Position numbers and translations under genes: made by a program. A DNA stretch of 63,076 nucleotides, filler included, from Dugesia japonica (lineage: Eukaryota), in the NCBI GenBank assembly GCA_001938525.1. It is 6 parts of 6 records of this genome, joined end to end, with 100 filler letters (N's around TTAATTAATTAA, not from the genome) between each part and the next. Parts side by side here need not be neighbours in the genome. Positions count along the whole stretch, not along the records: positions 1 to 9,363 come from MQRL01613530.1; 5 more parts are not named here. One strand, written 5' to 3'. The notes under the pieces were generated by a model. That model saw only the letters and a list, made by a program, of their open reading frames with translations, had not been told where the DNA came from and did not search any database. Positions 3,390-47,459 of the stretch are shown one piece after another. Numbering within the stretch: the stretch's first letter is position 1; each line of letters opens with the position of its first letter.

Positions 3390-3999
3390 ATTATTATTAT
3401 TAATAATAATAATTATGATCATGTATAGATTCTTCCTTAATAGTATAAAATATATCTTTGTTTAAAATAATTTCCGTGTATTCTTTATGGGAGATCGAAT
3501 AAAATATAAAATATTTGTAATCTCAAAATTTTTTGTTAATATAACTTTTCTTGTAATCAGTTCTATTTATGTGAGAGGAATTAATTATTCAACGGAGACC
3601 ATATGTATGGATAAATGATGATTGTAATGATTCTAGAAATTTGTTGCTCACATTTCGTTGTCTCATTGATTTCTTGTGTTAACAATGCTAGTTAGACAAA
3701 CAAAAATAAACAAAATAATTACCTTTTATTTTTTTATTTACTTATATCTAAAGAATGAAATTATGTAAATAAATTGTTTATTTATCCTTCCGTGTTCAAA
3801 GTTTATATACATATAGGTTGAGGGAAAAGTATTGTCGCTTTTTCATATACAAACTTTAAAGCAAAGATATATTTAGTTTCCGATTAATATTTTTATATTT
3901 ATTGATAAATAATAATAAGACAGGCAAGCTTTTATCAAAATAACACATTATTTTGTTATTTTAGGTTTGTTTGTATAATGTAAAACGCTATATAATAAA

Positions 4000-4734
4000 C
4001 AATGACAACGGCGCAAATTAGAATATGTTTTTTATATGAATTTAAGTTTAAAAAACGAGATGCTCAGCGTTGGTACAAACGATTCTGTTCTGGAGACACA
4101 TTCATAGAAAACCAGTGTCTGTAAAAAAAATCGAAACCGATTAATCGTAATAAAGAACTTAGGTTTTCGGTTTATTTGAAAATATGTATTAAAAGAAAAG
4201 TTTCTGTACGGGAAGAAAATAATCATCTGCATCTATAAAGGATTAGGTTTTGGTAATTATTGTCCGATTTGGAACATTTGAAAATATGTGAAAATCTGGA
4301 ATTAACAGAATTGGCTACATACTAATTAGATCATTCTAACTTTTCAACAAAGTCTATTTAAAGTTTGCCTGAAAACCTTTTTAAACAACTTTATCCGGGC
4401 AACAATAAAGTTGAAAGTTAATGTTCGGCAAATTTAGAAGAATTAAAAGAAGTGATCAAGTCAAACGATTACCTACAAACAGACGTTCAAAAAGCTATTC
4501 AAAAAGCTTTAGTGTTTTTAAAACATTATTTTTTAACAATTGCAATTATTGCGAGAATAATTGTTGGACATAACCATTGATCGTTTTATTGAATTCATTT
4601 ATTATAAAAGCTTAGATCAAAACGTTTTCAAAAAAAGTCAATTCCTGACGAAGACAAGGTCGAAATATCGAATTATTACCCAATATCAATAAATAAAACC
4701 AAAACTTTGATCTAAGCTTTTATATTAAATGAAT
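4000..4734 (+). mobile_element. Penelope-like element remnant with terminal repeat (pLTR) present as inverted plus direct copy
   Basis: Degenerate RT-thumb-like peptide (LEELKEVIKSNDYL, cf. NGYP) at ~4435-4480. It is followed by the repeat unit 4536-4734 shared with 15109-15250, 30242-30312, 32100-32302 and 49420-49575. A 29-bp inverted repeat lies at 4593-4621 / 4706-4734 (1 mismatch). Confidence 0.6.
4640..4674 (+). ncRNA. Minimal type-I hammerhead ribozyme
   Basis: AATTC-CTGACGA-A-GAC-AAG-GTC-GAAA-TATC-GAATT. Intact CUGANGA/GAAA core, stem I AATTC/GAATT, stem II GAC/GTC, palindromic loop-less stem III (ATAT), predicted AUC cleavage after 4669. Confidence 0.8.
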
Positions 4735-4929
4735 ATTATTTTTTAAATTTAAAATAAACTTAGTTTTGTTCTAGATTTTATTTAGTTTTTATTTTTCGAT
4801 TTATGATTAAAAAAATATTAATATTTATATTGATAGATATAATATTCCAGGTTTACTCATTTGTACCTGTTTTTAAATTCTCATATATTTACGTATCATT
4901 ATGTATTCTCCATTTTTAATTATTTACCA

Positions 4930-9139: not shown

Positions 9140-9363
9140 TTTCCACAATATGTTTCCACAATATATTGCCACAATATATTTCCACAATATATTTATAAAT
9201 ATATATTTCCACAATATATTTCCACAATATATTTCTACAAAATATCTCCACAATATATTTCTACAATATATTTCCACAAAATATTTCCTCAATATATTTC
9301 CACAATATATTTCCACAATATATTTCCACAATATATTTCCACAATATATTTCCACAATATATT
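9140..9363. repeat. 13-bp minisatellite (CCACAATATATTT)n
   Basis: About 17 tandem copies running into a gap. Confidence 0.9.
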
Positions 9364-10909
9364 NNNNNNNNNNNNNNNNNNNNNNNNNNNNNNNNNNNNN
9401 NNNNNNNTTAATTAATTAANNNNNNNNNNNNNNNNNNNNNNNNNNNNNNNNNNNNNNNNNNNNCACTATAGATTAATTTATTTTCTTATTATATTTGTCA
9501 GGCGAGTATTGCACCCAGAATCCGGTGTATATGGGGTGCAGAAGTACAGATGTCAAATGGAATTTGAATTCATTTTAGAGATATAATATCCTAACCTAAA
9601 CATACAATTAATCGAAATATAAAATTCNNNNNNNNNNNNNNNNNNNNNATACCAAATATATTATTGATTGAGTTCACAGTGTTATGACATTCTTTGATAA
9701 TTTTAATTATTAAAAAATGTTTGACTACTTTCGAATCTTCACAAATAATTGACAACTAAATTTAAAGAAACTATTTAAAATGTGTATATACTTTTTGATA
9801 TATTTTTTCAATCAAAGCTGTAATTTAGATGGGAAACCAGAGATTGCATAAGTCTATACGCTGAATTATCTTTGAGCATTTTAGCGTATGATTTTTGAAT
9901 TCTTCGGAACATAAAATGTTCACTTAAAACTACCTAAAATATAGGCATTTTACTTTTTTATGTCCCTAGAAGCGTGAAAATTTTCATTATTAGATTTATG
10001 TTAATTCATATGAATTTCTGTTAATAATGCTTTTTGGTCTGCCAAATTGAGGATTTTTGTTAGGATAGGTGCAGGAACATTATACAAATTGGTAACTGTT
10101 GTACTTTAGACGCGATCTCCAATTTTATTTTACCGACCGAGTTCCTAATTTTCCGCCTAAACCAGTATAAAATAAAGAAGTAAACAGATATTTTGTACAT
10201 CAAGTTTTAACGCCTTGTTGTAATTATTTAGAAGCCTTATTGTCACAGAACTTGAGTTCGCTATTGTATACTCTCTTACTACATTTCAGTATAATAAAAA
10301 AAGTATAAAATTTTATAGTACATTTATTTTATTACAATANNNNNNNNNNNNNNNNNNNNNNNNNNNNNNNNNNNNNNNNNNNNNNNNNNNNNNNNNNNNN
10401 NNNNNNNNNNNNNNNNNNNNNNNNNNNNNNNNNNNNNNNNNNNNNNNNNNNNNNNNNNNNNNNNNNNNNNNNNNNNNNNNNNNNNNNNNNNNNNNNNNNN
10501 NNNNNNNNNNNNNNNNNNNNNNNNNAATTTGCAAAGTTTTTATAAGGACTTATATTTAAAATTAATTAGTTAATCAACTTAAGTTTAGTTCGTATGACAA
10601 CTAATTCTTGTCATTAAACACAATATAATAATGTACGGAAGCTTCTATTATAAAACATCAATATAACATGAAATTTCTATTTAAGGAAAAAAGTATTTTC
10701 AAATATTTAAAAAGAATTACAAAACTTCAAAAATTAGGAAATAAAATTTTAATAATATCAAATACCAACAAAATATTTATGTGACTGATTATTGAGAATA
10801 TTTTACATTTAGCAATAGCAAGTGACATTCCAGTTAAAGTTTTAAAAACTTAATAAATATAAGTAAAGTCGTAATTGAAATCTACAAAACGATTTAATTC
10901 AATGTACAT

Positions 10910-11630
10910 TTAAATGAATTCATTAAAATAAAAGCTTCGATCAAAATTTGTTTTTTTTTGGTTTCTGATAGTAATTCTATACTTTGACACTTTTTCTGCA
11001 TAACATNATAATTTATGTATTTCTTCTATTGTCTCATGTATTTTTTCATCCGAAATTTTAATTTTCTTGATTAAATCTGTTTCTTCAGAAATGTTTAATT
11101 GATTCTCTTTTTCCTTTTCAATTATGTTCAGTATCCTCGTTTTAATCTTCCCTTTCTTGGCATCTTCGTGTGACATTAGACGTTGTACCCATACCTCGCA
11201 TCATGGTCTAGATAACATATCTGCATTGCCATGTTGAATTCTTTTTTTTATATTCCAAAATCATGTCTAGACTACTCAGATAATTAATCCATATCTGGAA
11301 TTGTGACTTAATTGGTTTCTTCGTCGTCATCATGAAAATCAGGGCTTTATGATTTGTTCTAAGAGTAAATCTTCTACCGTACAAGTAATGTTTGAAGTCC
11401 ATGCAAAANNNNNNNNNNNNNNNNNNNNNNNNNNNNGTGATGCAATATCCCTTTTTATGTTTTGTCATTGAGTATGATTTATAGACAACAACTCTTTCTC
11501 TTCTTTCTTTATCTCTCTGTGACGATACTGCTCCAAGTGTATCAAAACTGGCATCTGTGGCTAATATAAATTCTTTGTTAATGTCTTTTAAACACAATAT
11601 TGATGCAGTCATTAGAGATTTCTTTAGTTA
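10910..11630 (-). mobile_element. Gypsy pol fragment (RNase H and linker)
   Basis: FILATDASFDTLGAV, FKHYLYGRRFTLRTNHKAL, WINYLSSLD. Confidence 0.9.
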
Positions 11631-11639
11631 GATGTTAGT

Positions 11640-12985
11640 TGAAAAAGTGTACGAATATATAAGAAACAAATACATTGAGAAGAACTTGTGGAACCAAATG
11701 CAGAAGATAGTTCGTAGTTGTGAAATTTGTCAGAAGACCAAAGTAGTGACAACAGCAAATAAGGAGAAGACTATTGATATTGAAGATATGATATTGAGAA
11801 ATTCATAAAGCGATGTGAATGGTATTTTGAAACTAAAACATCACCCATGTTAAACAACAGGAGAGATTAGTTTCTTGTTTGTTAGATGAAGATTTGTTGG
11901 AAGAATATGCAGAGACGTTGAAAAAAGTTGAAAGTTTTCAATCTCGCTTACGTATGGCATTTGAGAAAGAGAAAGATGTTATTAAAGATTTTCAAAATTT
12001 GATTAACTACAGGTGGGGAAATGAAGAGTTTCAAGTTTATTTTAAAAATGTAAAAGATTTAGTAAAAAGATTATTTACAAATAAAGATTTTACTGAGGAA
12101 AAAATGGTAGCAAAGATGCTAGTATATTGTTCAGATAACAAAATCGTTGAAGAAGAAGTAACTTTGCAAAAACGAGAGAATATAGAAGAAATTGAAGAAA
12201 CAAATACGTTAGTAGATCGAGTAGAGAAAAACAGAGATCAAGTCAATGCATTTAAAAGTTACGCGAGTGTTACAAGTCAAAATTATCAGAAACCTGTAAA
12301 TCATACCGTGAATAGACATGTGGATCAGAGAAAGGAAAAATAAAATATCGAATGTTGGTTATGTCATACTATCGGTCATAATAAAGCCAATTGTCCAACG
12401 GAAAAAGTGATAGAGTGTTGGACTTGTCATAAAACAGGACATTTAAGTCGAGATTGTTCAAATAATTTTTTTTATTTATTTATTTGAATTTATTTATTTT
12501 TTTAATTTTATTTGAAGTTTTTGATGTATTTATTTGAAGTCATATTAACAGATATACGTGGNNNNNNNNNNNNNNNNNNNNNNNNNNNNNNNNNNNNNNN
12601 NNNNNNNNNNNNNNNNNNNNNNNNNNNNNNNNNNNNNNNNNNNNNNNNNNNNNNNNNNNAAGCTATTTTTGAAAAGTGGATATTGAGATTTGGATGTCCA
12701 AGAGAGATAAGACTAGATTGTGGAAAAGCTTTTTAATCCAGAGTTATGAGAGAGTTTGTTCTGAAGCTAGATATTAAACTTTGCTTTTCGATTACCTATT
12801 ATCATAATGCAAACGGACAAATTGAAAGACAGTTCAGGACAATTCGAGATTTAATTAATGCAAAATTTCAGGAAAGAAAGACAACAGATTGGGCAGATCT
12901 TTTACTGGAAATATAATTTACAATGAATGCAACAAAACAGAAGACGACTGGAAAGAGCCCGGGGGAGATCTTATTTGGAAGCACT
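11640..12985 (+). mobile_element. Scrambled Gypsy fragments: integrase Zn finger, gag with two Zn knuckles, integrase core
   Basis: VRSCEICQKTK at ~11710; gag ORF 11879-12343; CWLCHTIGHNKANC and CWTCHKTGHLSRDC at 12353-12457; WILRFGCPREIRLDCG and YHNANGQIERQFRTI at 12677-12845. Confidence 0.85.
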
Positions 12986-14399: not shown

Positions 14400-15250
14400 C
14401 TGTCATTCTTTTAAGACAAATGAAGTTATTTATCGATACTTAAGTAAAGCTGTTTCGTAAAACTAAATTATATTGTTGATAACAAATGAAGTTATGTTCA
14501 TGTAAATTAAATTTGTTTTGTCAGCGTTAAACGAAATTTATCCTTGCACAAACCAAATTGAAGTTGTTGATACCAGTCGATAATTGGATTCAAATAGATT
14601 GAATCAGTGACCGATTCCAAATCAAAGTCAGGTTCAAGAGAAAACAATGCAAAATAGTCAGATACTTTCAAATCAAAATTTTCTTTGAAATTCCACTAGT
14701 TTTCCAGAAAAAACAAATTCTATTCAGCGGATTTTAGAAATATAACTTTAAGAAAACATGTCAAACAAAGTTAATTTCGTATCAGTTTTTTATATCTCAG
14801 TTTTTTGATAATGAATGATAGACATTTAATGCCTAATATTAAATGCTTGGTACCAGAACACTTGATTTTGCAATGTCTATATATATGTTGTTCACTTGCA
14901 TATTGGTTGTATCTATTTTAAGGTAAAGAATTCTCGCAATACATTAATAATTATGTCGTAGGCTCAGTTGTTCGTTATCAATCAAGATGATCTATGTTCA
15001 TCATTTGAGAACAGCGAAAGAATGCAACTAAAACTTTGAAAAACGAAAGGATTCTCCAAAAAATTAATTAGAAATAAATTAAATTATTTAGAATTAGAAA
15101 ATAATTTTACAATTACAATCATTGCGAGAATAATTGTTGGACGTAACTATTGATCGTTTTTCAGATTTCATTAAAATAAAAGTGTCATCAAATTATTTTT
15201 GTTTTTGATAGTATTTCCAATTTTCGACTTTGTCTTCATAAGAAATTGAC
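14400..15250. mobile_element. Penelope-like remnant with pLTR (minus strand) carrying a degenerate hammerhead
   Basis: 15109-15250 is homologous to the 4536-4734 repeat. Minus strand 15213-15247 reads AATTT-CTTATGA-A-GAC-AAA-GTC-GAAA-ATTG-GAAAT, with a mutated core. Confidence 0.6.
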
Positions 15251-15401
15251 TTAACAATAATTTTGAAAATCAAGTTACTATAAATAGATGACAAATTTCA
15301 GAATTTTCAGAATAATCCCAGAAAATTTTGAAATAAAACAATCCTTTACCATTCATTATGAGAAATTATTAAATTAAAATCAAAATGAATATAAAATATT
15401 A

Positions 15402-16648
15402 TTAGGCTGTAAATAAATAAATGGCAATTTTTATTCTTCATCGGCAAATGAACAGATCTCAGCTTATACAAAATTTTATTAAACAAAACACCATCACTAT
15501 TTACACATTTCTCTCAACAGGTTACAAGTTTATTTATCTTAATAGAATAGAAATCCGGAGTTCTGTATTTAACTAATTTCGAGAAGGCATTATTGAAGAT
15601 TTTCCTGTTCAAAAAATTGTCTAAATGTTTGAAAAAATGTTAATAAGTGGGAAAGAAGTCTGATAAGTATGAATGTCAGACAGAATTTTATAGATGACTA
15701 ACTTAATTTTAATAGAGTAGATTGTGCAATGTGTAGCCCATTGTTGTCATGGAGAAGTAGAGGCTTCTTTCTATTGACAAGGGTCAAATAGCTTAGCTTC
15801 GATTTCTGATTCATTTCATTGATTCGATCTAAATACTCTTCTACCATAATTATTTCACCAATATTCAAGAAGCTGCAATGGATCAGACCATTAGAAGACC
15901 ACAAAATAGTCATTAAAACTTTCCGTTCGCACAGCTTTGGCTTAGTAAAATTTTTAGAAGCTTCATTTTGATCTAACCATTGTGCAGAATGTCATCAGTT
16001 AACTTAAAGTATTCTCTTCATGCTGCACGACACAATCCAATTACGTAATGGTTCGCATTTGTTTCACAAAATAAGTGCTAACGATACTTCAAAACGACAA
16101 AAATTCTTTGAATTTTTTTGATTCTTGAGGTATATATTTGTTGTGTATCCTTGATTTTCAAATGTCTCGCAAATGGTTTGAAAGTTTCATAACTTATTGC
16201 TTAGTTCAGAAGCATATTCCTGAACCGTTGTACACGAATTAATTTCAACTAATTTCTTAAATTGATCATTTTCAATTGCAGGGTTCTATCAATGGCCTTC
16301 TTCATCGTAAAGACTTTCATTCCAGTTTTAAATATCTGAAACTAAAATTCAGTGATACCCTCATTTGATGTTTCATTATCAAATATACGGTCGCTATTTC
16401 AAGAGGTTTGTGCAGATGTGTTACCTTTTTCCAACTCAGTAAAATTATTCTTATCTGATTATTGTTTATCTATTTTATAAATGCCAGGAAAACTTTCAAT
16501 AATTAACTTAAACTTTTATTATATTACTTCAATCAGAAAACGCGCCTCAAAATGATGAAATAATTTAGAATAATAAAACATGATTTTATTTAAAAAACCG
16601 TGATTAAAAACAATTCCAAAAATCGCAATTTAATTCTTTACAACATAA
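15402..16648 (-). mobile_element. Full-length but decayed mariner transposon
   Basis: Imperfect TIRs TTAGGCTGTAAATAAATAAATGGCAATTTTT / (rc) TTATGTTGTAAAGAATTAAATTGCGATTTTT with TA on both flanks, ~1.25 kb. Transposase remnants MTILWSSNGLIH, LLLHDN and a YSPDLAP-like motif; multiple stops. Confidence 0.88.
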
Positions 16649-17792: not shown

Positions 17793-18067
17793 ATAAAATA
17801 TAATTACATCTAATAATCAATATATCTCAATATAAAATTAATAATTCAAAATACAGACATAAAATTTTATATAAATCATTTCAAAAATACAATTAACTAT
17901 AATACTCTCAATTATTATAATAATGATAACTCTGATATAATACTAATAATAACTCTAATGCAATAATNNNNNNNNNNNNNNNNNNNNNNNNNNNNNNNNN
18001 NNNNNNNNNNNTTAATTAATTAANNNNNNNNNNNNNNNNNNNNNNNNNNNNNNNNNNNNNNNNNNNN

Positions 18068-19040
18068 CACCATACGGAAAAAAATATTAGAGAAGTAGAT
18101 ATTAAAGTTTAGGTCTCCAAGAGAAATTCGAATTAATTGTGAAAAAGCATTTGAGTCGAAATCAATGAAAGATTTTTCAGCTGAACATTGACTTTCCCTC
18201 AGGTTTTTGAGTCTATATCATCCTAACACAAATAGGCAAATCGACAGGCAGTTTAGAACTATGAGGGATATGATTAATACAACGCTTAAAGAAAGGAAAT
18301 CTTCAGATTGGGCAGATGTATTACCAGAGATAGAATTCACCTTAAATGCTACAAAACAAAAACTATTGGGAAATGCCCTGCTGAAATCGTATTTGGGGAG
18401 AGAATCAGCAGAGAAAAATGGTGTGAAAACAATACTCAAAGAGTGAACAAAGAACAAAAAGAAGAAATATTACCCAAAAGAAAATTCGAGATAAGTGATG
18501 AATTTTTGGTGATAGCTGATACAAGAAACAAGAACCCAGATCGTTTTGAAAGACCTTATAAAATCAAAAGAAAGGTTCATGACAGACGTTACATCCTGGA
18601 AAATAAGAACGGAAAAATTTGCGAAAGAAACGTAGAGAAGGTCAAATAATTTCTTAAAAAGGTGGATGTAAGTGTGTTAAAAAGCAAAGTTAAATTTTTG
18701 TGTGATTGGTGATCATATTTTTTAAATCTTTTGCTGAAAAAAAAAGATTTAAAGTTTTAATGAAGAATTTAAATGACAAAAATTCGTTTTAAATGTTAAA
18801 TTAAAAATTTTCAGAAATTTATTTTAATTTTAAATAAATAAGTAAAATTGTTTGAAATAAATGAAATTAATTTTAGTTAAATTAAGTTTAATTTAAAAAA
18901 TTCAAAAAATGATGATAATAATGTAAATTTTTAATAAATAAAATTTTCAAAATGAAAGAAATTGACATAAATAAATAAATAAAATGTTTGAAATAAATAA
19001 ATTACAGTTTTAGATTTTGAAAAATGATCACCAATGAAAA
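18068..19040 (+). mobile_element. Gypsy integrase C-terminus, PPT and 3' LTR
   Basis: YHPNTNRQIDRQFRTMR, WADVLPEIEFTLNAT. PPT AAAAAGGTGGA then TGTAAG at ~18667; the LTR start resembles the one at 55773 (minus). Confidence 0.88.
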
Positions 19041-22204: not shown

Positions 22205-23120
22205 TTTGCATGTTTACTATGTAAATAATACAAAGTAATTATGCAAATAATATACTTATAAACCCTATAATACACGGTTACTTTGTATTAATACACACAA
22301 AATCCTTATAATTCATGATTGCTATGTAAATAATACAAGGTAACTATGTAAAGAACAGACTCATAAACCATATAATACACTGTTACAATGTAAATTATAC
22401 ACATAAAAATCATATATTAAATGGTTGTTATGTAAATATTACATGATACCTAAGCAAATAANACACTCGTAAATCTTATAATTCTAATTATACAAGGTTG
22501 TTATGTAAATAATACCCCCATAAGTTTATACTACACGGCAAATATGTAAATATTAAACACCTTATACAGGTTTACTATGTAAATAATACACTCATAAACC
22601 ATATATTTCATGGTTACTATGTAAATAATACAAAGTAGATATGCAAATAATACACTCATTAACCCTGTAGATATCAAAATAATTACTTATACGTTTTTTA
22701 ATAGACTTGCTATATATATTGAAAACCTTTGCTTTTTATCATTTTGTATAGACAAATTCCCAGCTTAAATGTTTTTATGAAAAATATTTTTTATAGAAAA
22801 ATGTTCTATGTTTTTATCATTTTGTATAGGAAATTGTCACCACAAATATGTTTTGTATAGAAAATTGCATCGCTAATCGGTTATGAGATTTATTATTAGA
22901 AATTGCATCACTAATAAACATTTTTATTAGAAATTGCATCACTAATGAGAACTTTTATTAAAAATTAAGTCGCTAATGAGATTTTTTATAGAAAACTGTC
23001 ACTAGTAATATGTTTTTTATAGAAACATTACATGACTAATATTTTTTTAAAGACCAAAACTACATGATTAATATGTTTTTTAAAGAAAGTTAACTAGCAA
23101 ATATGTTTTTAAGAAATAAA
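22205..23120. repeat. Two adjacent degenerate tandem arrays
   Basis: Motif GGTTACTATGTAAATAATACA recurs over 22205-22665. Motif TTTTATAGAAAATTGCATCACTAAT (~30-bp period) recurs over 22740-23120. Confidence 0.75.
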
Positions 23121-26575: not shown

Positions 26576-26984
26576 TTTTTTTCAAATTTTCAAAAATTTT
26601 TTTTTTAAAATTGTTTGTTTTATTATTTTTTATTTATTTATTTTTTTTTCAAAGTAAACAAAAGAAACAAATCAAGTTATTAAACATCAATTAAAAACAA
26701 GACAACATCAATACGATAAAAATTACATCAACAACAAACAAAATTTATGGAAATCTTTCCTCAATAACGGTCCGCATTACCCAGTATGTACATGGATTGG
26801 TTTCACATATTGATATTATTTCAAATTTTCTTTCGAAAAGGTATAAAACCCTCTCGATATCAATCAACTCTTCTTTCAGAACATNNNNNNNNNNNNNNNN
26901 NNNNNNNNNNNNNNNNNNNNNNNNNNNNTTAATTAATTAANNNNNNNNNNNNNNNNNNNNNNNNNNNNNNNNNNNNNNNNNNNN

Positions 26985-27458
26985 TCATCAATATGAATAT
27001 ATCATCAGTAATCATCAATATGAATATATCATCAGTACTCATCAATATAAATATATCATCAGTAGTCATCAAAATGAATATATCATCAGTAATCATCAAT
27101 ATGAATATATCATCAGTANNNNNNNNNNNNNNNNNNNNNNNNNNNNNNNNNNNNNNNNNNNNNNNNNNNNNNNNNNNNNNNNNNNNNNNNNNNNNNNNNN
27201 NNNNNNNNNNNNNNNNNNNNNNNNNNNNNNNNNNNNNNNNNNNNNNNNTCAGTAATCATCAATATGAATAAGATCATCAGTAGTCATCAATATGAATATA
27301 TCATCAGCAGTGATCAATATGAATATATCATCAGTAATCATCAATATGAATAAGATCATCAGTAGTCATCAATATGAATATATCATCAGCAGTGATCAAT
27401 ATGAATATATTATCAGTAGTCATCAATATGAATAAGATCATCAGTAGTCATCAATATG
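26985..27458. repeat. 27-bp minisatellite (ATCAATATGAATATATCATCAGTA(A/G)TC)n
   Basis: Tandem copies on both sides of an internal gap; these account for the INMNISSVI pseudo-ORF. Confidence 0.92.
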
Positions 27459-27467: not shown

Positions 27468-30078
27468 AAAAAAAAATAAATCTTTATTTATCATAACACA
27501 CTGGATCACTAGTCCATGAAACAAGTCCAATTAGGTACAGATGAATCCGTAACCTTGATTTTTCTTTTAAACTTATAACTTTTTCTTAGAGAAGCGGAGT
27601 TTTAATCAAACTCAGCTCAGACATCAATGCAGAGGAATACCATCAATTGTGTTGAATCTTGCCTTATTAATCATATGGTCCCGGAAAATCCGATTGCTAG
27701 TCTTGATGACCTTTTCTATCAAAGCCTGAGCTATTTATTTAATTTCTCTATTGTTAAGTCCAATGGCCTTGAGAGCTCTCTGATTTGCAGGATCATACGA
27801 TCCTTGGGTACCAAGGACAATAGCATTGAGTGTAACTTCTTTGTGGTACTTGGCTCCAAGATCTTTCCGAACCTGTTCATATTTTATTTTATTGTCAGCT
27901 CGAGCTTTCTTGAAACCTTCGAGAGAGTCATGGGGAACTTTGACGTCCAGAATGTGGATCCTGTTATTCCTATTGCATGTAATAACCAGATCAGGTCTCA
28001 GTTTGGCATCGAGACCTTGCAATGAGCAGTCATACTGTACGTCAAAGCCCCATTTTCGGAAGATCGCAGCTGTCCTTTCCATAATTCTATTGTGCTTGTT
28101 GTATTTCTGGTGGTTCATAGCTGGACAATGGTTGAAGATGTGCGTTTGTGTCTCAGCATGAGAACCGCACTGTTTACAGTGAGTAGGCATATTCATTTTG
28201 ATCCGGAAAGGATTGTAGTTTGTACGGAGAAGGTTGTTTCTAGCACGAACAATAAATAGGAAATCCCTCTCTGTGACATTGACTTTTTTCATGAATTTGC
28301 TGCTGTAATCCGAGGCAGCAATTGAATTGGCTATGAAGATTTGCGTGGAAAGTTTGCACCAGTTTTGAAAATAAGTAAATCCAATTTCTTTGTGTAGGGC
28401 TTTGCAAATCTTTGATTTGGATTCGTTGTTGAAGATTTTGCTAGTTTCTTTGTTATATTCAGCCAGGCCAGAAAGACGTAAGGATATTTGATTTTCGTCT
28501 CTATAGAATGTGATTTTCAGATTATGGGCTTCCTTTAGTCGATTGATAGCCAATCTGACCCTAGTCCACCAGGAGGCGACGACATCAGCTTTATCCTGTG
28601 GTGGGATAGTGTGGTTGATCCAGTCTAGACATTTATCTAGAGAGAAATTGGCCTCCTTCCTAAAGCGATGTTTGCCTGTTAGCTCCAATTCACGAGTGGC
28701 AAATTCTCTGAAAACCTCGGTGTCTGAATTCAGTGTTCGCAAAGCATGGACAATGATTTTGATGTAGTACTCATCTATAGAGGGCGTCAAACCGAGTCCG
28801 CCAAGATTAGAAGGTACATACAGAAAGGCATTGGTTTGGCTGGTGTTAGGTGCCTCAATGATTTCCTTAATGATTTTCTTAATAACTTGGTCATAACCAG
28901 GTTGGCCAGTGGAACCATCGACAGGTTTATGATGAGGGTTGTTGAGCTTCATACATAGGATGTTCCGGTTTCTCATTGAGTATATCAGTCTCGAATGTAT
29001 GAACATTTTGTATGCTTGAATTTTCTGAGTAGGGTGGAGATCAGATTGTGCCACTTTGGTGTAATTGTCAATGGCCTTGGATATGATTTTCTCAAAGTTG
29101 CATTTTTTCTTCTCACCAAAGGGTACACCCAAATAATTGTAGAGATTTTCTTCGTCAATGATTGGAAGTTTCTCTCCATATATTTGTAATTCATTGGAAA
29201 TGAATTGCTGGTTGATAGTGAAATATCCACATTTACTGGGCCTGAACTTGAGTTGATAAATTTCGCAGAGGCCAACTATATGGTTAATCATGGCGGCACT
29301 CTTCCTTTGATTATTTGTCATTAGTACCAGATCATTTGCATATGCAAGGATAGCTTTTTTGAATCCAGAGTTTATAAACGGGAATTTCAATGCAGTATCN
29401 TTGATCATAAAATCAATAGTGAGGCTGAAAAGTGTCATTGACATAGGACACACTTGTTTTACACCTTTATGAATGGCGATATCACTAGTGTTGATGTCGA
29501 GGCAGCTGTAGCTGGTATAGACATCAGTGTAGAGATCCCTGGGAAGATGGAGAGTATCTTTGTGAAGACCCATTCTCTTGAGAGTATTCCATATAAGTTC
29601 ATGCGGTAGACTTACAAAGGCATCTGCTAGATCAAGCCAGGTTAGGTTAAGGTTAGTTTTCTCTCCCTCCGTTTTCTCTTTAATTATTTGAATAGTGGCA
29701 TTGTGTTGTGAGCAGCCATCGGAGACATTTACAGCATTCTGTGTAATAGAGAGAAGGGATCCGTTCTTAATCCATTGGAGGAGATGGTAGTTAATAATAA
29801 TTACAAATATTCTCTAGGAGGTGTCAAGAACAGCAATTGGCCTCCATGAGGAAACAAGGTGAGAATGCTCTTCCTTACCTGGTTTAAGAATAAGGGTTGT
29901 GTGAAATCTCTTCCATTGGTTAGGAATATCTTTTTGGTTAAGAACTTTGTTATATAGTTCTTTAAGAAAACAATGACTATTGTCTAGTTTGATCCAGTCT
30001 GAATAGCTAATTTTGTCAAGGCCTGGTAAGGATTTGTTAGCACAGCCAAAAGCATATTCAATTTCTTGGAAGCAATCC
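27468..30078 (-). mobile_element. 5'-truncated non-LTR retrotransposon with restriction-like endonuclease (R2 group, probably NeSL/R5-like)
   Basis: RT motifs KSLPGLDKI, WRPIAV, WLDLADAF, GVKQVCPMS, YANDLVL and YLGVP; CCHC finger CKQCGSHAETQTHIFNHC; KHN; RLE motifs LRPDL and ILDVKVP. One stop at ~29815; a frameshift at ~27738 restores the C-terminus to TGA at 27624-27626; AATAAA near 27485. Confidence 0.93.
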
Positions 30079-30241: not shown

Positions 30242-30312
30242 ATATCGATTTGTTATCTAATATCAATAATTAAAACCTAAATTTTGATCTAAGCTTTTAT
30301 ATTAAATGAATT
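30242..30312 (+). repeat. Partial Penelope-like pLTR copy (hammerhead core falls in the gap)
   Basis: ATATCGATTTG...TTTGATCTAAGCTTTTATATTAAATGAAT matches 4665-4734. Confidence 0.7.
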
Positions 30313-30344
30313 ATAATTATTATTATTATAAGGAAATAATTTCA

Positions 30345-30612
30345 ACCAAAAGAAATTAAGATAAATTTTTTTTATGAAATTATTGATTTCTGCTTGTAAT
30401 TTTTTTATTGTTTTAATTTGATAATAAAAATCTGTGTTTAATTAATTGTTGAGATTTGCAAAATAAATTATCGTTAGAGGATGTAACTAACATGGTGGCA
30501 GTGGTAAATACCAATTATATTATAGATAGATTATTACCAAATGTGTTCTGCAGAGGAACTAATATTGAAAAATTCATAAAGCTTTGTGAATTGTATTTTG
30601 AAGCTAAAAACA
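30345..30612 (+). mobile_element. Gypsy LTR end, tRNA-Leu-like PBS and gag N-terminus
   Basis: ...CTAACA|TGGTGGCAGTGGT (30493-30505) is complementary to a eukaryotic tRNA-Leu 3' end. Reads MVAVVNTNYIIDRLLPNVFCRGTNIEKFIKLCELYF, homologous to the gag starts at 43824(+), 42545(-) and ~11790(+). Confidence 0.8.
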
Positions 30613-32070
30613 TTGCACGAATTTTGTCTATGGAAATTCGCTCTGCTTGTACTTGTCACATTACTTCAAAAACTTTACTATCTTCATTTTTCCAAGTTAC
30701 CAGATATAGACTTGATAAATTGTCTTCAGTGGTCTTCTTAATTTGTGTTTGATCCATCCAAATTTGAATTGATCAATTCCTTGTAGCATGAATGTTTTCT
30801 TGACTCTATACAATCTGAGGCAACTGTTTCGTAATTCTTTTGGAACCATTTTTTGTCCATCAGAGCATAATGGTAGAACAATACCATTTGGTAAACAGAT
30901 AGTACCATCAAAAACTGTTTGGCGAGGTGATAACTTTAAATCTTTCCCAGCCGCGTTACGGATTCTTAAAATTGTGTATAGAAAATTTTCTAAAATATTG
31001 CGTTTAGCATTAGTTCCTCGAGTTTGTAAAGCATATTTTAGAGAACTGTTAAATCTTTCTATTTTTCCATTGCACTGTTAGGTATGCCATGAGGTATTCC
31101 ATGGTGTGGTATGCATATGTTCAATTCCAAAGGATTCGCAGAAATCGTTAAATCTTTCAGATATAAATTGTCTACCATTGTGACTAACTATAATTTCTGG
31201 TATTTCAAAGTGAAATATACATTCTTTAGTTAAGGCTTTTATAATGTTTTCAGATGTAATTCGTTTCAGAGCTACTACTTCTGTTCATGAAGTATCATGA
31301 TCAATCATTGTTAGTATAAACCTTTTGTTGTTATTGACTTGTTAAGAACCAACCAAATCTATGTGCAATGCTTTGGATTTTCCTCGATTCGGAATCGATC
31401 CTAACGGTGCTTTTGTGTACTGAGTAATTTTGTTGGCTTAATATATTTGACAAAAGCTGCACCATTTACGAATTTGGGATTTTATACCTGGTCAAAGATA
31501 AGTCAAACTGTAAGTTTCTTTGTTGTGATTCTAAATGTTTCTTCATGAATCAGTAACCATTGAATAGCTCAGTTTTTAGTTGAACATGCGATGAAATCAT
31601 GTATTGGTAACATTGTTTGGAATTATCCATTGATAAAAGACCATTTTTCCCATAAATCTTCTTAACGCTTTGAATGTTTTTGGAACAGACATATTACTGA
31701 TGGCTTCAATCTTAGATTGTTTTGGCTTTATACATTTTGAAGAGATTGTAAAACCAAGAAATTCTACCACGGACTTGTTGAACTGACATTTTTTGGTTTT
31801 AATCTGCAGCTTATTCTTACGTAATACTTCCTTTATGATGCTCGTCGAGTGAACTAAAATATCAAAAATATATACCGAAATAAAAGCACGGCAGTCTAGC
31901 AAACATTTATCCATGTGTCGTTGGAATTTTTGTGAAGCATTTTTCAGTCTTAATGGCATGCTTTTATTTTCCAATAATCCAAATAGAGTTATAATAGCCG
32001 TTTTATGACTGTCCTCCTCATTGATTGGGATTGGCTGATAAGCTTTCTTAAGATCTAAAGTAAATAATTA
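30613..32070 (-). mobile_element. Gypsy pol fragment (RT, integrase) of a second family
   Basis: DLRKAY..IPINEEDSHKTAIITLFGL, LKNASQKFQRHMD, CQFNKSVVEFLGF; integrase HIDLVG and SHNGRQFIS. Confidence 0.85.
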
Positions 32071-32099
32071 TTTCGTTGTAGTAATAATAATTTAAAATA

Positions 32100-32302
32100 A
32101 AAGATTCAATCAAAATTTTCAAAAAAAAATTTGATAACAATTCGATATTTCGACCTTGTCTTTGTCAGGTCGAAATATTGAGTTGTTATAAAATATCAAT
32201 AAAAAAATACAAAAATTTTGATCGAAGCTTTTATTTTAAATGAATTCTGTAAAACGATCAATGGTTATGTTCAACAATTATTCTCATAATAATTGCAATT
32301 GT
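32100..32302. mobile_element. Penelope-like pLTR with head-to-head inverted junction inside the hammerhead
   Basis: Minus strand 32138-32169 reads C-CTGACAA-A-GAC-AAG-GTC-GAAA-TATC-GAATTG. It is fused to plus-strand GGTCGAAATATTGAGTTG..., which continues into the pLTR. Confidence 0.75.
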
Positions 32303-32933
32303 AAAAGAATTATTATTATTATTATTATTATTACAAGGAAATAATTATTAATTAATAATTTTGGCCAATAGAAAGCGATTTAATTGTATATTAATATTTT
32401 AATGGTTCCATTATCATATGATAATATAAGTGAGATAGCTGTGTGAATGGAAATAAATGATGTCTAAAAATAGTTGGGATTTTGAAAATATATTATCAAT
32501 TGAAGATTTAATTATTATTANNNNNNNNNNNNNNNNNNNNNNNNNNNNNNNNNNNNNNNNNNNNNNNNNNNNNNNNNNNNNNNNNNNNNNNNNNNNNNNN
32601 NNNNNNNNNNNNNNNNNNNNNNNNNNNNNNNNNNNNNNNNNNNNNNNNNNNNNNNNNNNNNNNNNNNNNNNNNNNNNNNNNNNNNNNNNNNNNNNNNNNN
32701 NNNNNNNNNNNNNNNNNNNNNNNNNNNNNNNNNNNNNNNNNNNNNNNNNNNNNNNNNNNNNNNNNNNNNNNNNNNNNNNNNNCATCAAATAATCAATAAA
32801 AATTCAGCAATTTATATGATTAATCTGTTATTGGTCAGTATTCAAGTTTAATACACGCACAAATGTTTTTTCTCATTTTATTAATGCGAGTAGTAAAGTG
32901 AACACAATTTTAGAAATTTACGTTGGACTGATT

Positions 32934-33599: not shown

Positions 33600-34260
33600 T
33601 TTTAATTATTGGCAGTCTTTGAAAATTTTTTTTATTTATTGAAATCTTTTAATTATTTGTAATTCTCGAAAATCTTTAAAATTATTTNCAATTATTTATT
33701 TTTTAAAAATATTTAAGATTATTTATTTTAAAATTATTTAAAATTATTTATTTTCAAAAATATTTAAGATTATTTATTCTAAAATTATTAAATATTATTT
33801 ATTTTAATATTATTTAAAATTATTTATTTTAAAAATCATTTATTTTAAAATTATTTAAAATTATTTATTTTAAAAATCATTTATTTTAAAATTATTTAAA
33901 ATTATTTATTTTAAAAATCATTTATTTTAAAATTATTTATTTTAAAAATCATTTATTTTAAAATTATTTATTTTAAAAATTATTTATTTTAAAATTCATT
34001 TATTTTAAAATTATTTAAAATTATTTATTTTTTAAAATGATTTAAAATTCTCAACCATTGCAGCTATTGAAAAACTTTCAAATTATTTAAAATAATTAAT
34101 TCCAAAATTATCTGAAATTTTTTCCAACTATCGGAATTACTGAAAATCCTTGGTAATTTTAATTATTGAAAAAAATTACTGAAAAAATTCTAATTTTTGT
34201 AATTAGTGAAAATTTTTCTGAAAATTTTAATAATTGAAAAAATATTTTAATTATTGTTAA
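33600..34260. repeat. AT-only low-complexity tandem repeat (TTATTTATTTTAAAA-like)
   Basis: Repeated ATTATTTAAAATTATTTATTTTAAAA units. Confidence 0.8.
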
Positions 34261-40432: not shown

Positions 40433-41319
40433 GTAAGCTTCGTAACTTTATAATTTTTTGAATAATAAGTATTATAAAAAATAATTTTGTAAATATTGGA
40501 AAATAAGAATTTTCAATCAAAAATAGAAAGATGTAACTGAAAAATTAGTTTAACTAAAGAAATTTTTGCTCCGAAATTTTATCGGACCAATAAAAATTAT
40601 TTATATTATTCCAGTATTGAAGAAGTTGAAATGAAATCATTTCTCATACAAATTTATGAACCGCATAAAACCAAATTTATATATTTTCAAGCATATTGAA
40701 AGAATTGATTAGATTTTAATAAATGAAAATAACGTCATTTTTAAAAATATTTTATTGGTAATACATATTTCGGAAAAATCTGTGTCCATAATCAGTTACA
40801 GTCGTTCATAAAGAGATAAAACTAATTACGTAATCAATCCAATAAAATAAGACTNNNNNNNNNNNNNNNNNNNNNNNNNNNNNNNNNNNNNNNNNNNNNN
40901 NNNNNNNNNNNNNNNNNNNNNNNNNGCCCCGATTGCAATTCTTTCAAAATAATTATTAAACCACTGTTCTTAACCGTTTTTTCATCAATGCTTATCTTGC
41001 CTTTTCTATTTTTGTTCCAAGAGGCATGATCTCAAACCGAACGTTTTTACTTTGTTGAATATCTGCACTAATATGTGTACCTGGAGAACCAAGAAACCTA
41101 TATAATCGAATAAATGCGATTACATATGAAGAGGTAAATACAAGATCGACAGACATTTGACATAAAATTGTTTTCATATAAAATTTAATTGATATAATAC
41201 TTATTTGACAAAAAATTTTNNNNNNNNNNNNNNNNNNNNNNNNNNNNNNNNNNNNNNNNNNNNTTAATTAATTAANNNNNNNNNNNNNNNNNNNNNNNNN
41301 NNNNNNNNNNNNNNNNNNN

Positions 41320-42550
41320 TGAATTAATTCCTTTGTCTTTATAAATCCTGGATGGCCCATGTTGTTTTGATAATATTCTATTATTTTCTTTTTACTATGA
41401 GACGTGAAATCATTTTTTAAAACTCGAATAATTGGCTTCTCATCATTTTTTTTCTCGATCAGTTTCACATTTCTTCGTTTTTTTAGTTCATTATGTCTGA
41501 GTTCACATTGTTCACATTCCAGTCGGCTCATATAGTCTGCATTTATGTGTAATCTGACATGTCAGTGTTCAATATCAAAATCATATTCCTCTAATTCTGT
41601 GATCCAAGTAAAATACTGTGATGTATATTTGGATTTTACCAACTTTTGAGCCACAATAATGCTTNNNNNNNNNNNNNNNNNNNNNNNNNNNNNNNNNNNN
41701 NNNNNNNNNNNNNNNNNNNNNNNNNNNNNNNNNNNNNNNNNNNNNNNNNNNNNNNNNNNNNNNNNNNNNNNNNNNNNNNNNNNNNNNNNNNNNNNNNNNN
41801 NNNNNNNNNNNNNNNNNNNNNNNNNNNNNNNNNNNNNNNNNNNNNNNNNNNNNNNNNNNNACTTGCATCTGTATCTAATATGAACATACCTTTTTTCAGA
41901 GGATAAGATTAAACTGGGGCTGTTGTTAGACGTAACAGTATCTCTTTATATGCTTCTTTTCTTTCAGCATTCCAAATTATTTGTTTTTTTATGTATTTCT
42001 GATTTATGCTTAGTTTGTCTTGTTTCAGTATAGTTTCTAAAGGTTAAACTACATACGCAAAATCTTTTATAAATTTTCTATAATAGTTACAGAAAGCTAT
42101 AAAGCAATGTAGATTTGAGTAACATCCTGGTTCTGAAAAATTTCGAACTTTTTCTATCTTTATTGGATCTGTTTTTATACCTTCGGCCGTAATTCTATAT
42201 TCCAAATGAAACTTCCTTTAGCAATAAATTACATTTGTCAGATTTTAATTTAACTACTGATTCTTCTATTCTAACTAACACTACTTCCAATCGACTGAGA
42301 TGTTGTTCATACGAGTTTCCAAATATTAAAACATCGTCCAGATAAATAAGACATTGTTCCCAATTTTCCTTTAGCAATATCAGATGCGTAAGTCGTTAAA
42401 ATGTTGCTGTTGTTTTACATGGGTGATGTTTTTAGCTTAAAAATACAATTCACACTGCTTGATGAATTTCTGAATATCATCTCCTCTGCAGAACACATTC
42501 GGCAATAAACTCTCTGTAATAGAATCGGTATTTACCGCTGTCACTATCTT
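41320..42550 (-). mobile_element. Gypsy fragment: gag N-terminus fused directly to RT, RNase H
   Basis: IVTAVNTDSITESLLPNVFCRGDDIQKFIKQCELYF (42545-42435) runs straight into CLIYLDDVLIF, then FILDTDAS, NADYMSR and GHPGFIKT. Confidence 0.85.
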
Positions 42551-43701
42551 AGGTAAATTTTCAATTGGTAATTCATTTTGAAAATCACTACTAATATTTT
42601 GAGACATCATTTATTTTTCTACTACAACACATGTTTCATAATATAAATAATATTGAAATACAAGCATTTCAATACTAATATTTATATAACTCAATTTCTA
42701 TTGGATGAAATTATTAATTAATAATTATTTCCTCATAATATATATTTATGCTTTAATTAATATAAATTACTTTGTATGNNNNNNNNNNNNNNNNNNNNNN
42801 NNNNNNNNNNNNNNNNNNNNNNNNNNNNNNNNNNNNNNNNNNNNNNNNNNNNNNNNNNNNNNNNNNNNNNNNNNNNNNNNNNNNNNNNNNNNNNNNNNNN
42901 NNNNNNNNNNNNNNNNNNNNNNNNNNNNNNNNNNNNNNNNNNNNNNNNTCATGTTAATGTATACCGGGGGAATAATGATATTAATTATGTTATTGTTAGT
43001 AACCTCTAAATATCTCATGTGTAAAATATTTTATATTATAATCAATTATTTCATCTAAATATAATTTTTTTAAGTTTTCATTATTTACTTTTAACCACCT
43101 TCTCATCTACAAAAATAATTTCACATTATTTATGATGATTTGTGGTATTTTGACTTCATTCTATATTTATATTTATTATCAAGCTATGTTTCTCTTTTGA
43201 AAAAACTCTTAATATCATGAATTGATTTTTACTTTTAAATAATTTTTTTTCAATTTTATTTACAGTATTATATACATTTAAGTTTTACAATTTGATGTTA
43301 TTATTTTTTTTGAGCTTCGGATTTCAAATTCATATTTTTGCTTTCTTTTCTCAACTATTACACTATATTGATAACGTAATAATGCAATAATAATTAAATC
43401 GGATCGCAGAGAAAATTGTAGTTTCTTTTCAGGAAAATAGCTAAACTAAAATTGGGGAATTGTAGAAATTGAGAAATAATAAGTAAAATAAATAAAAGAA
43501 AACAAAGTAAAATTATAAATATAAATTTAATTAAACTCGAAAAGTTCAAAATGAAACATCAAATTGAAACAAAACGTGAGTATTCATAGATGAATATCAT
43601 AATTCCTAATTTAAGAGCCAGGGTAACAGTCAAAAACGTATTATATTTGATGGCTTTCAAATCAAAAATCAGTAAATTTGTCAACATTAAAATAATTTAG
43701 T

Positions 43702-43836: not shown

Positions 43837-44828
43837 CCACGGATTTATTAATTAGCAGATAATTACCTGAGAGATTCCACGGAGGGGATAACCTAGAATA
43901 ATTCATTACAGATTGTTAACGATTTTTCAGTGTCACCAAAACAAATCTGAAAATGCAGAAAATTTTGGTAACTGCCTTGTTGGATAAAGAATTATTGGAA
44001 GAATACGAAACAGCAGAAGGAAAATCGTTTGAAGAAAAACTCAGTATTGCCTTCCAGAAACCAAGTTCTTTAATCGAAGATATGAAAGAAGCTTTAAGTT
44101 ATGAACAAGGCAATGATTCGGTAGAGATATTCATCGATAAAATCAAAAAATTGACAAAAACGTTAATTATTCATGAATAAGAAATAGAAAAATGCTTATT
44201 AATCCATTGTATTGGAGATAAAGATGTAAAAAAGAAATAGAAATGCGAGAATTAAGAACATCAGAACAAATCAGATCAACAATAAAGAAAGTTGAAAAGG
44301 TAAATAAAGCAATTGGTCAAATTAATGTTCTTAGAAGCTCAAAAACAAAGAATGTCCGAAGTGATAGAGACGTGGTTCAGAAGTGACAGTTGAAAGATAC
44401 AAATATGAAAATTAATAAATATGATGAAAATAGACTAATTCCAGTTTGTTGGACATGCCAAAACCATGGCATATAAACAGAGACTGCTAAATGAAAAGTA
44501 TTCAATGCTATGCATCTGGAGCATTGGGATACATGCGCAGAGAATGCCCAACAATTCAGTGTGGAAGATGTCTTCTGCGGGGACATAAAACAACAGAGTG
44601 TTACACAAATTTAGAAAGAAGAAGGAAAGCGAGAATAGTTGATAATATAAATTATAAAAGACATGATAATTTCAGAAATCAGAGTAATGAGACTAGAGAT
44701 TTCATGAACAGAAATCAACAGAGGAACAGACAAAATCAAAAAATGATTGCAGCTATCGGTTCAAATGCGGAGACACCAGTAGAAGAACAAACCAATGAAC
44801 TAACTGGGGAATATGAAGCTATAGAGTA

Positions 44829-44859
44829 CCCAAAATGTTACGCTTCTTCTAGAGAGGCG
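44829..44859 (+). promoter_or_regulatory. Candidate -1 ribosomal frameshift signal (gag-pol)
   Basis: C_CCA_AAA heptamer in X_XXY_YYZ phase, 5-nt spacer, hairpin CGCTTC-TTCTAGA-GAGGCG. The -1 frame is open from 44853 to 45338, running into the protease. Confidence 0.6.
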
Positions 44860-47459
44860 ATGGTCGAAGCAATTTATTAGTTAATTTTGATGTTGATAAT
44901 GATATTGGCTATAATAATTTAAATAAAATAGAGTATTTTAATTTAAATAAAAGTAATATTAAAAGTTCAGCTAGTAATAAATTATATAATATATATAGTA
45001 ATAATTTTTTAAATTCTAAATATGATAATTATATTATAAATAATAATGATGACAACAATAATGGACAAAATAAAACGTTAGATGATAATGAGTATATTAA
45101 TTGGAGAGTTACAGAGAAGATTAATAAATTTATTAAAAAAGACTTTGATGTAAATGAAAATGAAATAATAGAAGGTACAGATGATTATATCGATCAGAAA
45201 TTTTTAACTATAGATGAAAGGAAACGACCAAGAATAACCTATATTAAAATGCAAGGCAGACCAAGTATAACGATAAGTATCCAAGGTCGTGAGATGAAGT
45301 TGCAGGTGCGCGAGTTAATTATCAAAAACAATACTAGATAAATTAGAATATGTAGAAATAATTAAAACCAATGAATTATTAAGATGTGCGAATGATAGTT
45401 AATTAAAAGCAATGGGTAAAATTCATATTAATGTCAAATTAGGAAATAAAGAGAAGAAAATAACATTAATAGTGGTAAAAAATATTATTCTGGATATTAT
45501 TGGAGGTATTGAGTTTCAAAATCAATCCGGCATAAAATTGAAACGGATAGAGAAAACAAAAGAAAGGACAGGATATTTTATATGTGATATAGAAGCAAAG
45601 TATGGCAGGAAAATCACGGATGATGAAAGATTACGATGAGCAAAAGAAATTTTGAAATTGACCAAAAATAATAGATTAATGGAAATCGCGCAAAGAAATA
45701 ANNNNNNNNNNNNNNNNNACAAGTGGGATATTGGGTGCACTGCTTTAATTCAACACAGAATTAAAACAAATGGAGGGCCGATAAATATAAAACCGAGGAA
45801 GGTAAATTTAGAAGGTAAAATAAATGAGACTTTAAAAAATTTACAGGACAATGATATAATCAGGAGATGCAACTCACCTTGGAATACAACTTTGGTATGT
45901 GTATGGAAAAAAGAAAGAAAGATATCAGACTGTGTCTAGATTTTAGACAATTGAATCAAATTACGGAAAGACAAGCTGCTCTATGCTAAATGTCGAAGAG
46001 ATTTTAGATACATTATATGGTTCTAAATATTTTAGCTCTATCTATCTATACAATGCTTATTATCAAGTAAGTCTTGATAAAGAATCGCTAGAAAAAATGG
46101 CGTTTTCCACAAAAGAGGGTCAATTTTGTTTTAATAGAATGNNNNNNNNNNNNNNNNNNNNNNNNNNNNNNNNNNNNNNNNNNNNNNNNNNNNNNNNNNN
46201 NNNNNNNNNNNNNNNNNNNNNNNNNNNNNNNNNNNNNNNNNNNNNNNNNNNNNNNGATTCTATGAAAACACACTATATTATATTGGAAAAGGTTTTAAAT
46301 ACAATTAAAGACGCAGGATTAAGAATTAATTCAGAAAAATGTCAACTGTTAAAATAATAAGTTAAGTTTTTAGGTTATATTATAAACGACGAAGGTATTC
46401 AAACAGATCCGAGTAAAATAGAAATTATCCAGTCATTTCAAAGATCAAAATGTGTTAAAAACTTGAGGAGTTTCTTAGGCATATTCAAATATTATCGGAA
46501 GTTTATTAGAGATTATGCAAAGAAATCAAAACCATTAGAAGCTATGTGTGGGAAAAATAATTCAAAATCAATATGATTTGATTTATTTGAAAAAGCATTC
46601 GAAGAAATGAAATTAGCATTAATAAGCTCTCCAATATTTATATTCCCAGATTTTCGAAAAGAATTTATACTCGACACCGATGCAAGTTTTAATACGATTG
46701 GAGTTTTATTATCTCAAAAGGATGAATATGGACATGAACATGTAATATCATATAGATCTCATTCCATGAATGATCATAAACGGGGTTACTGTATTACAAG
46801 AAAAGAATTGTTGGCGATCTACTATAAATAAACAAGATGAAAAGACAATAGTCCAAGTTTTACTGAATAATTGGATACTAAAATTTGGGACACCGGAGGA
46901 ATTTAACGTAGATTGTGGGAAAGGCTTTGAAGTAAAGGGTTTAAAAGAAGTGAAAAGTGCTGCAGGAATTGAGCTAATATTCTCTAGTCCATACCATCAC
47001 AATGGCGTGGTAGAAAGACAGTTTCGAACCATTAGAGAAAACATAAATGCATCATTAAAAAATCGACTCAACACGAATTGGGCAGATATGTTACCAGAAA
47101 TTGAGTACACTTTGAATTCGACAACTCAGAAAACCAACGGAGTAAGTTCAGCAGAAATTGTATTTGGAAGGAAAATAAATAGATCAAAATGGTTTAGTAA
47201 CAGCAAAGTAGATAGATAAGCAAAGATGATTAAAATTGTAACACAAAAGAAGGAAGGTAACATAAGAACAGCACCGAATTTGGATGTTGGATACGATGTT
47301 CTAATTAAACAAGAAATATGTAATAAAGATCAAGATAGATATGCATGACCATATATGGTCATCAAGAAAATTCATGAAAGAAGCTATTTACTAAGAGATG
47401 TTACAGGAAAAATAGTGATTATAAATATAGAGAAGATTAAAGATTTTAAAAAAGGAGGA

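Follow-up and report, generated by a model that had tools for sequence, protein, structure and literature searches.

The 63,076-nt stretch of the Dugesia japonica genome analyzed here (the window) is AT-rich, mostly 21–30% GC per 2 kb, gapped, and full of decayed LTR-retroelement, mariner, and IS4-like fragments (the last presumably piggyBac-type), together with one non-LTR reverse transcriptase (RT). Decayed gypsy-like LTR fragments at 11200–12500, 18069–18678, 30700–32067, 41270–41950, 44490–47220, and 55760–57600 carry RT, RNase H, integrase, and zinc-knuckle matches, and a DDE_Tnp_1_7 transposase remnant lies at 51645–52262 (+). Minisatellites occupy 9140–9363, 26985–27458, 22210–22482, and 33675–34089, with repeat lengths of 13, 27/82, 106, and 16–41 bp, respectively. 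At 49739–50618 (−) there are at least three tandem, related cysteine-rich exons of the Ly6/uPAR (CD59-like) type, for which atlas matches of 0.86–0.88 are leads only. Five 100-base spacers (44 N, 12 bases, 44 N; at 9364–9463, 17968–18067, 26885–26984, 41220–41319, and 50890–50989) are assembly linkers rather than biology, and the one that was read contains a TTAA repeat.

Self-comparison of the window revealed that a hammerhead motif at 4640–4674 heads a repeat of 100–160 nt, present as eight arms at six loci. A profile built from these eight arms gave no matches in the reversed window, which served as a control. The features are as follows:

4525–4536 (+): left copy of the 12-bp target-site duplication (TSD) of unit A, ATTATTTTTTAA
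4537–4628 (−): unit A, inverted arm, 5′-truncated, with a 56-nt tail (4537–4592) and without the hammerhead
4632–4734 (+): unit A, forward arm; begins at the fixed 5′ start and stops at the short 3′ end
4640–4674 (+): hammerhead of copy A, intact minimal type I; stem I of 5 bp, stem II of 3 bp with a 3-nt loop
4735–4746 (+): right copy of the 12-bp TSD of unit A
10902–11001 (−): unit F, decayed sixth copy, short 3′ end
15100–15108 and 15256–15264: 9-bp TSD of unit B
15109–15255 (−): unit B, solo, with tail; core at 15222–15242 broken (G5>U, G17)
30242–30313 (+): unit E, 3′ part only, following a 100-N gap; short 3′ end, then an (ATT)n run
32090–32168 (−): unit C, forward arm; G8>A core, no 5′ strand in stem I, short 3′ end
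32167–32309 (+): unit C, inverted arm; begins at loop II and reaches the long (tail) end, with an (ATT)n run after it
49421–49583 (+): unit D, solo, with tail and intact core; no TSD found

The original prediction had counted five copies in 63 kb. The decayed copy had been missed, and so had the body of about 65–130 nt behind the hammerhead, the two inverted arms, and the two TSDs.

Copy A reads AATTC-CTGACGA-A-GAC-AAG-GTC-GAAA-TAT-C-GAATT, with an extra A between A9 and G10.1, the loop-less palindrome ATAT, C17, and a predicted cut at 4669/4670. Copy D (49427–49464, +) is also a complete motif with an exact core and two N within loop II; it has the palindrome AATT, U17, and a stem I containing GTTC/GAAC, with six stem I pairs over its length and a predicted cut at 49458/49459. 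To these two sites, and to no site in 300 dinucleotide shuffles, we could match exactly a full descriptor comprising the core, a stem II of at least 3 bp, a palindromic 15.2/16.2, U16.1, H17, and a stem I of at least 4 bp. The loose core pattern, by comparison, is not significant, giving eight window matches against a chance mean of 3.99, with 8 of 100 shuffles equally high. In control metagenome contigs the pattern matched 54 times, with palindrome, H17, and stem I together in none of the 54, which we take as chance, and a scan over viral contigs gave no matches. Rfam returned nothing on the window at gathering scores and, on 4500–4760, five chance matches (E 1.1–8.2) with no hammerheads among them.

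The conserved core (C3 U4 G5 A6 N7 G8 A9 / G12 A13 A14 A15.1 / U16.1 H17), and with it an intact motif, is thus found at two of the six loci. A change of G5 and a G at position 17 both inactivate hammerheads, and copy B carries the two together (CTTATGA, with G17). Copy C has CTGACAA in its core (32148–32168, −), and its inverted arm stands in place of the 5′ strand of stem I; the effect of mutating G8 is documented in the accessible text of PMC11167929. Copy E is visible only from the palindrome onward, any core falling inside the 100-N gap, and the core of copy F is unrecognizable. The proposal that four copies share the CTGANGA core therefore stands for 4640 (+) and 49428 (+) and fails for 15213 (−) and 32138 (−), while that of a fifth, gap-cut copy at 30242 stands for the part from the palindrome onward and not for the core. 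The four aligned copies all have the extra nucleotide between A9 and G10.1 and the G10.1–C11.1 pair, and stem III is a palindromic 15.2/16.2 without loop III, ATAT in copies A and C and AATT in B and D.

These traits (the extra nucleotide 9/10.1, G10.1–C11.1, a palindromic 15.2/16.2, and sequence families with compensations) are those given for minimal hammerheads in the accessible text of PMC4209133. The hammerheads of Penelope-like elements (PLEs) described there also share the CUGANGA core, a loop-less stem III, a short stem I, mostly solo copies, and close opposite-strand pairs. Core, extra nucleotide, and palindromic stem III thus bear out the assignment to the PLE type. The differences are that stem II is 3 bp with a 3-nt loop here and 7–8 bp in S. 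mansoni, that it spans 4–7 bp across 12 rows of that paper's Fig. S3, and that no ORF is linked to the window units. The planarian row in the supplement (S. mediterranea, 5-bp stem II) is another sequence.

To gauge conservation across the family we used read and contig alignments, for which reads needed 80% likeness, the core itself aids alignment, and few independent events are involved. Among the substitutions listed for the alignment on 4626–4692, those above 10% in RNA reads fall at N7, at 4656 and 4658 in loop II, at 15.2 and 16.2, and at H17 (C>A), as well as at 4675 and at the 3′ flank positions 4679, 4681, and 4683. At the invariant core sites, single substitutions among those listed reach at most 6.9% in RNA and 3.5% in DNA, with two G12 changes together amounting to 10.9% in run X23. 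Loss of G or C within the core (0.8–3.5% in DNA) is similar to that outside (1.9% at 4637), the pattern that neutral decay of inserted copies would give. At position 17 the blocking G is the rarest substitution, at 0.10–0.16% versus 2.1–2.9% for A and U in DNA, and at 0.5–4.6% versus 24–28% for A in RNA.

Changes at paired positions appear compensatory. For the palindrome swap, 4666 T>A and 4667 A>T occur at 0.54/0.48% in X1, 0.51/0.43% in X2, 16.0/14.4% in X22, and 16.6/17.2% in X23; these frequencies are matched per run rather than linked per read, and the swap may be one inherited event. About 95% of DNA contig depth has G for A at 4675, and the family therefore has a sixth stem I pair; the stem I lengths given in the original prediction were too short for the family as for copy D. 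Relative to the family, copy D has three stem I pairs changed on both sides, all of them still paired (C-G to A-U, A-U to U-G, and A-U to G-C). The compensatory changes claimed between 4640 and 49428 hold up in this way, the ATAT and AATT palindromes and the GTTC/GAAC stem being as described. Neither an absence of covariation nor a core as variable as its flanks, two outcomes that the prediction had set against itself, was what we found in these alignments. The covariation in the four-copy alignment is by itself marginal: four pairs are changed on both sides, 23 of 500 shuffles reach that number, and one of the four depends on the non-homologous strand of copy C. This weakness, the invariance of stem II, the chance that the swap happened only once, and the lack of an Rfam hammerhead match all count against reading the units as PLE inserts.

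The arms terminate at two alternative 3′ ends, 56 nt apart, each used by four of the eight. Short-end arms (A forward, C forward, E, and F) stop just after AATGAAT, C forward four bases sooner, and tail-end arms (A inverted, C inverted, B, and D) run about 56 nt further. An open frame of 21–22 codons starts at the short end in three of the four tails and is broken in copy D; conservation of these sites may have another cause than coding. Inverted arms occur at two of the six loci, where units A and C form head-to-head fold-backs in which a truncated, tail-bearing inverted arm sits 5′ of the forward arm. Neither tandem (head-to-tail) copies of the unit nor a direct pLTR pair flanking a PLE ORF was found in the window. 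A second repeat, at 32063–32091, 32321–32510, 30322–30613, and 42426–42740, has an AT-rich start that follows units C and E, and at unit C both arms are bordered, in inverted orientation, by the first 29 bases of this second repeat. Unit C may be a later inverted duplication, or the second repeat may be an insertion hot spot.

TSDs bound two of the four testable units (12 bp at A and 9 bp at B); none was found at units C and D, which counts against the PLE-insert reading. The matches were noticed before the random-pair test, in which 3 of 3000 random boundary pairs reached 12 bp and 18 of 3000 reached 9 bp; the boundaries chosen are consistent with the alignment as well as with the mapped reads. 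ATT occurs in each of the two TSDs, and (ATT)n runs border units C and E. A transposase-mobilized fold-back DNA element of the MITE kind, in which the hammerhead is an inherited bystander, would fit the folding of unit A into a long hairpin (z −5.46) and its TSD, and decayed mariner transposase remnants do adjoin unit A (3995–4230, +) and unit B (15400–16400, −, with a Transposase_1 match at 15698–15991). The arms are unequal, however, and do not always meet at the same point; unit B, a solo copy, has a TSD but no inverted ends; the TSD lengths differ; and frequent variants spare the catalytic core. Mariner TSDs are TA, and those of units A and B are not. We do not count the mariner remnants, which are situated beyond the TSDs, among the parts of the units. 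We regard a fold-back DNA origin as extremely unlikely.

The same anatomy is familiar from PLE insertions, which often combine an inverted truncated copy with a tail at one end only (PMC8557442, PMC3846280). As far as the accessible text of these papers goes, EN+ PLE units such as Adineta vaga Pen2a share with ours the head-to-head inverted truncated copy, the tail on one arm, and AT-rich and (AAT)n targets, with TSDs of 8–10 bp in Adineta Penelope units and of 12 and 9 bp here. The pLTR plus tail of Pen2a covers the first 22 codons (PMC3846280), which resembles the 21–22 codon frame of three of our four tails, a frame tied to no protein. The units differ in being only 100–220 nt long without an ORF between repeats, and their 56-nt tail compares with the 30–40 nt published for EN+ PLEs, which counts against the PLE-insert reading. 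Architecture, inverted arms, tail, and TSDs nonetheless uphold the PLE connection that had been proposed.

Public sequencing runs extend the family well beyond the window, where its density is one locus per 10 kb. Alignment on 4460–4800 recovered 27,200 contigs from X1 and 4,302 from X4 (neither contig counts nor summed contig depth being a copy number), and 2,188 of 13.6 million reads from X22 and 66 of 10.5 million from X21, with depth restricted to about 4520–4735. Loose ends pile at 4630–4633, in 459 contigs at three places in X1 and in 551 at four places in X2. Because these contigs end loosely there, we set several hundred genomic loci as a floor, and we estimate thousands or more; the description of a high-copy family is borne out by the X1 contigs and the six window loci. 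Upstream of 4630–4633 the flanks are unrelated, with an agreement of 0.42–0.48 in all four runs, DNA and RNA alike. Joints link 4555–4594 to 4630–4643 in many contigs (among the joints listed, 15 of 73), and strand-changing joints occur at 4632–4653 in DNA and RNA; these joints are inverted arms of variable length attached to the fixed start. Past the tail end the flanks are heterogeneous at 4532 (agreement of 0.45–0.47 in X1, X4, and X22, and of 0.67 in five X21 reads), so that no continuing ORF is seen, which again counts against the PLE-insert reading.

These ends bear on whether the units descend from a full-length PLE without any short template, as ordinary 5′-truncated remnants or as solo pLTRs produced by recombination. 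Most solo minimal hammerheads are read as truncated PLEs in the accessible text of PMC4209133, and solo unit B with its TSD could also have come from recombination between direct pLTRs. The tail region is moreover about twice as deep as the core (4.7M versus 2.2M in X1, and 1568 versus 592 reads deep in X22), and truncation is therefore common. Random truncation predicts scattered 5′ ends and shared upstream sequence, however, and what we observe is the pile at 4630–4633 preceded by unrelated flanks. We therefore judge this origin distinctly unlikely.

A Pfam scan covered 27 ORFs across the window and 150 of the 173 ORFs of at least 45 aa near the copies, 177 in total; of the 173, 19 were already covered and 4 lying in a tandem repeat were left aside. 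These 177 window ORFs gave no match to a PLE reverse transcriptase or to GIY-YIG, which counts against the PLE-insert reading. PLE proteins are poorly modeled by Pfam. Because no PLE ORF is seen among the window ORFs, we do not file the units as autonomous PLEs. The RT at 27735–29813 (−) is an unlikely partner, being a restriction-endonuclease-type non-LTR element rather than a PLE. Its 692-aa frame has RVT_1, zf-RVT, and a C-terminal CCHC plus PD..D-type nuclease motif, and it has only six homologues, 24–34% identical, the best of which carries PF02902 (Ulp1 protease); we take this last feature to suggest a NeSL-like clade. The 27-bp minisatellite array lies just past the 3′ end of this element.

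We next consider cleavage. Of the aligned X22 and X23 reads, 96–97% extend beyond the repeat into unlike sequence; both mate strands are represented, at ratios of about 2:1 and 1.5:1. The repeat is therefore read mainly inside other transcripts. No pile of read starts or ends was seen at any place, the predicted cut included, in these oligo-dT/cDNA, fragmented libraries, which are a weak test of cleavage. Depth just past the predicted cut is 0.77–0.85 of that just before it on both strands, so that neither strand shows a specific loss. For 4639–4675, the monomer hammerhead fold has a predicted energy of −2.8 kcal/mol, near the minimum of −3.3. In the homodimer minimum of −11.9 the two strands exchange stems I and II and the palindrome stays unpaired, so that this fold speaks neither for nor against the active dimer. 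PLE hammerheads reportedly cleave as dimers, a result attributed to work by Lunse and colleagues in 2016. Self-cutting by the hammerhead is a prediction from its sequence, and inserted copies are expected to be inactive because the head-to-head partner lies on the other strand and the window holds no tandem pair. The claim of a self-cleaving family gains no support from the window copies: most are broken, the second copy of a head-to-head pair lies on the opposite strand, and poly(A) reads show no cut, weak as that test is.

A non-LTR retrozyme would instead make tandem transcripts that self-cleave to monomers and circles, which are reverse-transcribed, the window holding solo offspring. The accessible text of two sources (PMC7229834; bioRxiv 10.64898/2026.07.22.740005) describes such elements as short, AT-rich, non-coding, likely PLE-mobilized, and provided with a type I hammerhead, as the low-GC units here are, and monomer-rich retrozyme families related to PLE pLTRs appear in the second. 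The retrozymes of PMC7229834, however, have canonical rather than minimal hammerheads in tandem repeats of 150–450 bp, and the window contains no tandem array of the unit and does contain inverted arms and tails. There is no sign of circles in the oligo-dT and cDNA libraries, no backward-going joint occurs among the joints listed (15 of 73 on 4460–4800), and the reads run into unlike sequence with no pile of starts or ends at the cut. The units also have their start upstream of the core and not at the cut site; with no tandem copies in the window either, the suggestion of a retrozyme-like family, in the published sense, is not supported. A retrozyme origin is, in our assessment, very unlikely.

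We return to the PLE-insert reading and to a PLE whose activity has been measured, Poseidon_Ac of Anolis (Frangieh et al. 2024, PMC11167929). According to the accessible text, the anole protein nicks at ATT and initiates reverse transcription at two internal positions, and these define the tail; it uses uncut RNA, its hammerhead is active only when protein-bound, and cleavage is dispensable for insertion in vitro. The family described here resembles it in having what would be two internal RT starts downstream of the hammerhead, an ATT preference, an uncut RNA substrate, and an absence of RNA-seq ends at the cut site. It differs in that the Poseidon_Ac ORF begins at stem II and none does so in the core here, where there is no ATG because N7 is mostly C or A; for the window units, furthermore, activity is predicted rather than measured.

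We consider it likely that a PLE enzyme made the dispersed 100–160 nt inserts by copying the front end of a Penelope-type RNA that had not been cut. That RNA may be the leader of an autonomous PLE or a dedicated non-autonomous master. From the observed anatomy, boundaries, and abundance of the units, and from frequent variants that spare the core, we infer the following route. The RNA would start about 13 nt upstream of C3, near 4632, where 4638–4644 fit what we take to be the initiator consensus YYANWYY, a lead only. A PLE protein would nick AT-rich, ATT-containing DNA, and its reverse transcription would begin about 100 or 160 nt into the RNA, at alternative internal sites that correspond to the short end and the tail end. 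Synthesis would then run to the 5′ end of the RNA, yielding short units; the template would be uncut RNA because the inserts retain sequence 5′ of the cut site. A second, truncated copy would often be laid head-to-head, and repair would leave a duplication of 9–12 bp. Only in source elements would the hammerhead be active, either dimerized or assisted by the PLE protein; inserted copies would decay neutrally, being read passively inside other transcripts.

By its testable features, the repeat appears to work like a PLE pLTR-plus-tail insertion with a minimal hammerhead, combining the sequence hallmarks of both. It is set apart by a stem II of only 3 bp, by a tail of 56 nt, and by the predominance of units lacking an ORF. 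We found no paper devoted to this family, which Repbase, Dfam, or Lunse et al. 2016 may hold; the best reading is that the kind of element has already been published (PMC4209133, accessible text) and that the family itself is new. Its value is accordingly modest, the kind being known, but repeat annotation is affected, since the motif is missed by Rfam.

A bolder reading, which we hold to be unlikely, is that the repeat constitutes a self-perpetuating, ORF-less mini-Penelope lineage, a SINE equivalent of about 160 nt, with the hammerhead and its unusually small 3-bp stem II under selection across subfamilies and cleaving in trans between separate RNAs or on the PLE protein. If so, the many host transcripts with intact copies would be conditional cleavage targets, and the hammerhead would have been kept even though solo and head-to-head copies cannot dimerize in cis. 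The role of PLE hammerheads is called unclear in the accessible text of PMC8557442. Given its very large size, its fixed start and two alternative ends, its intact TSDs, and its subfamilies, the family is well suited to asking whether insertions use uncut RNA and to studying how the inverted arm forms.
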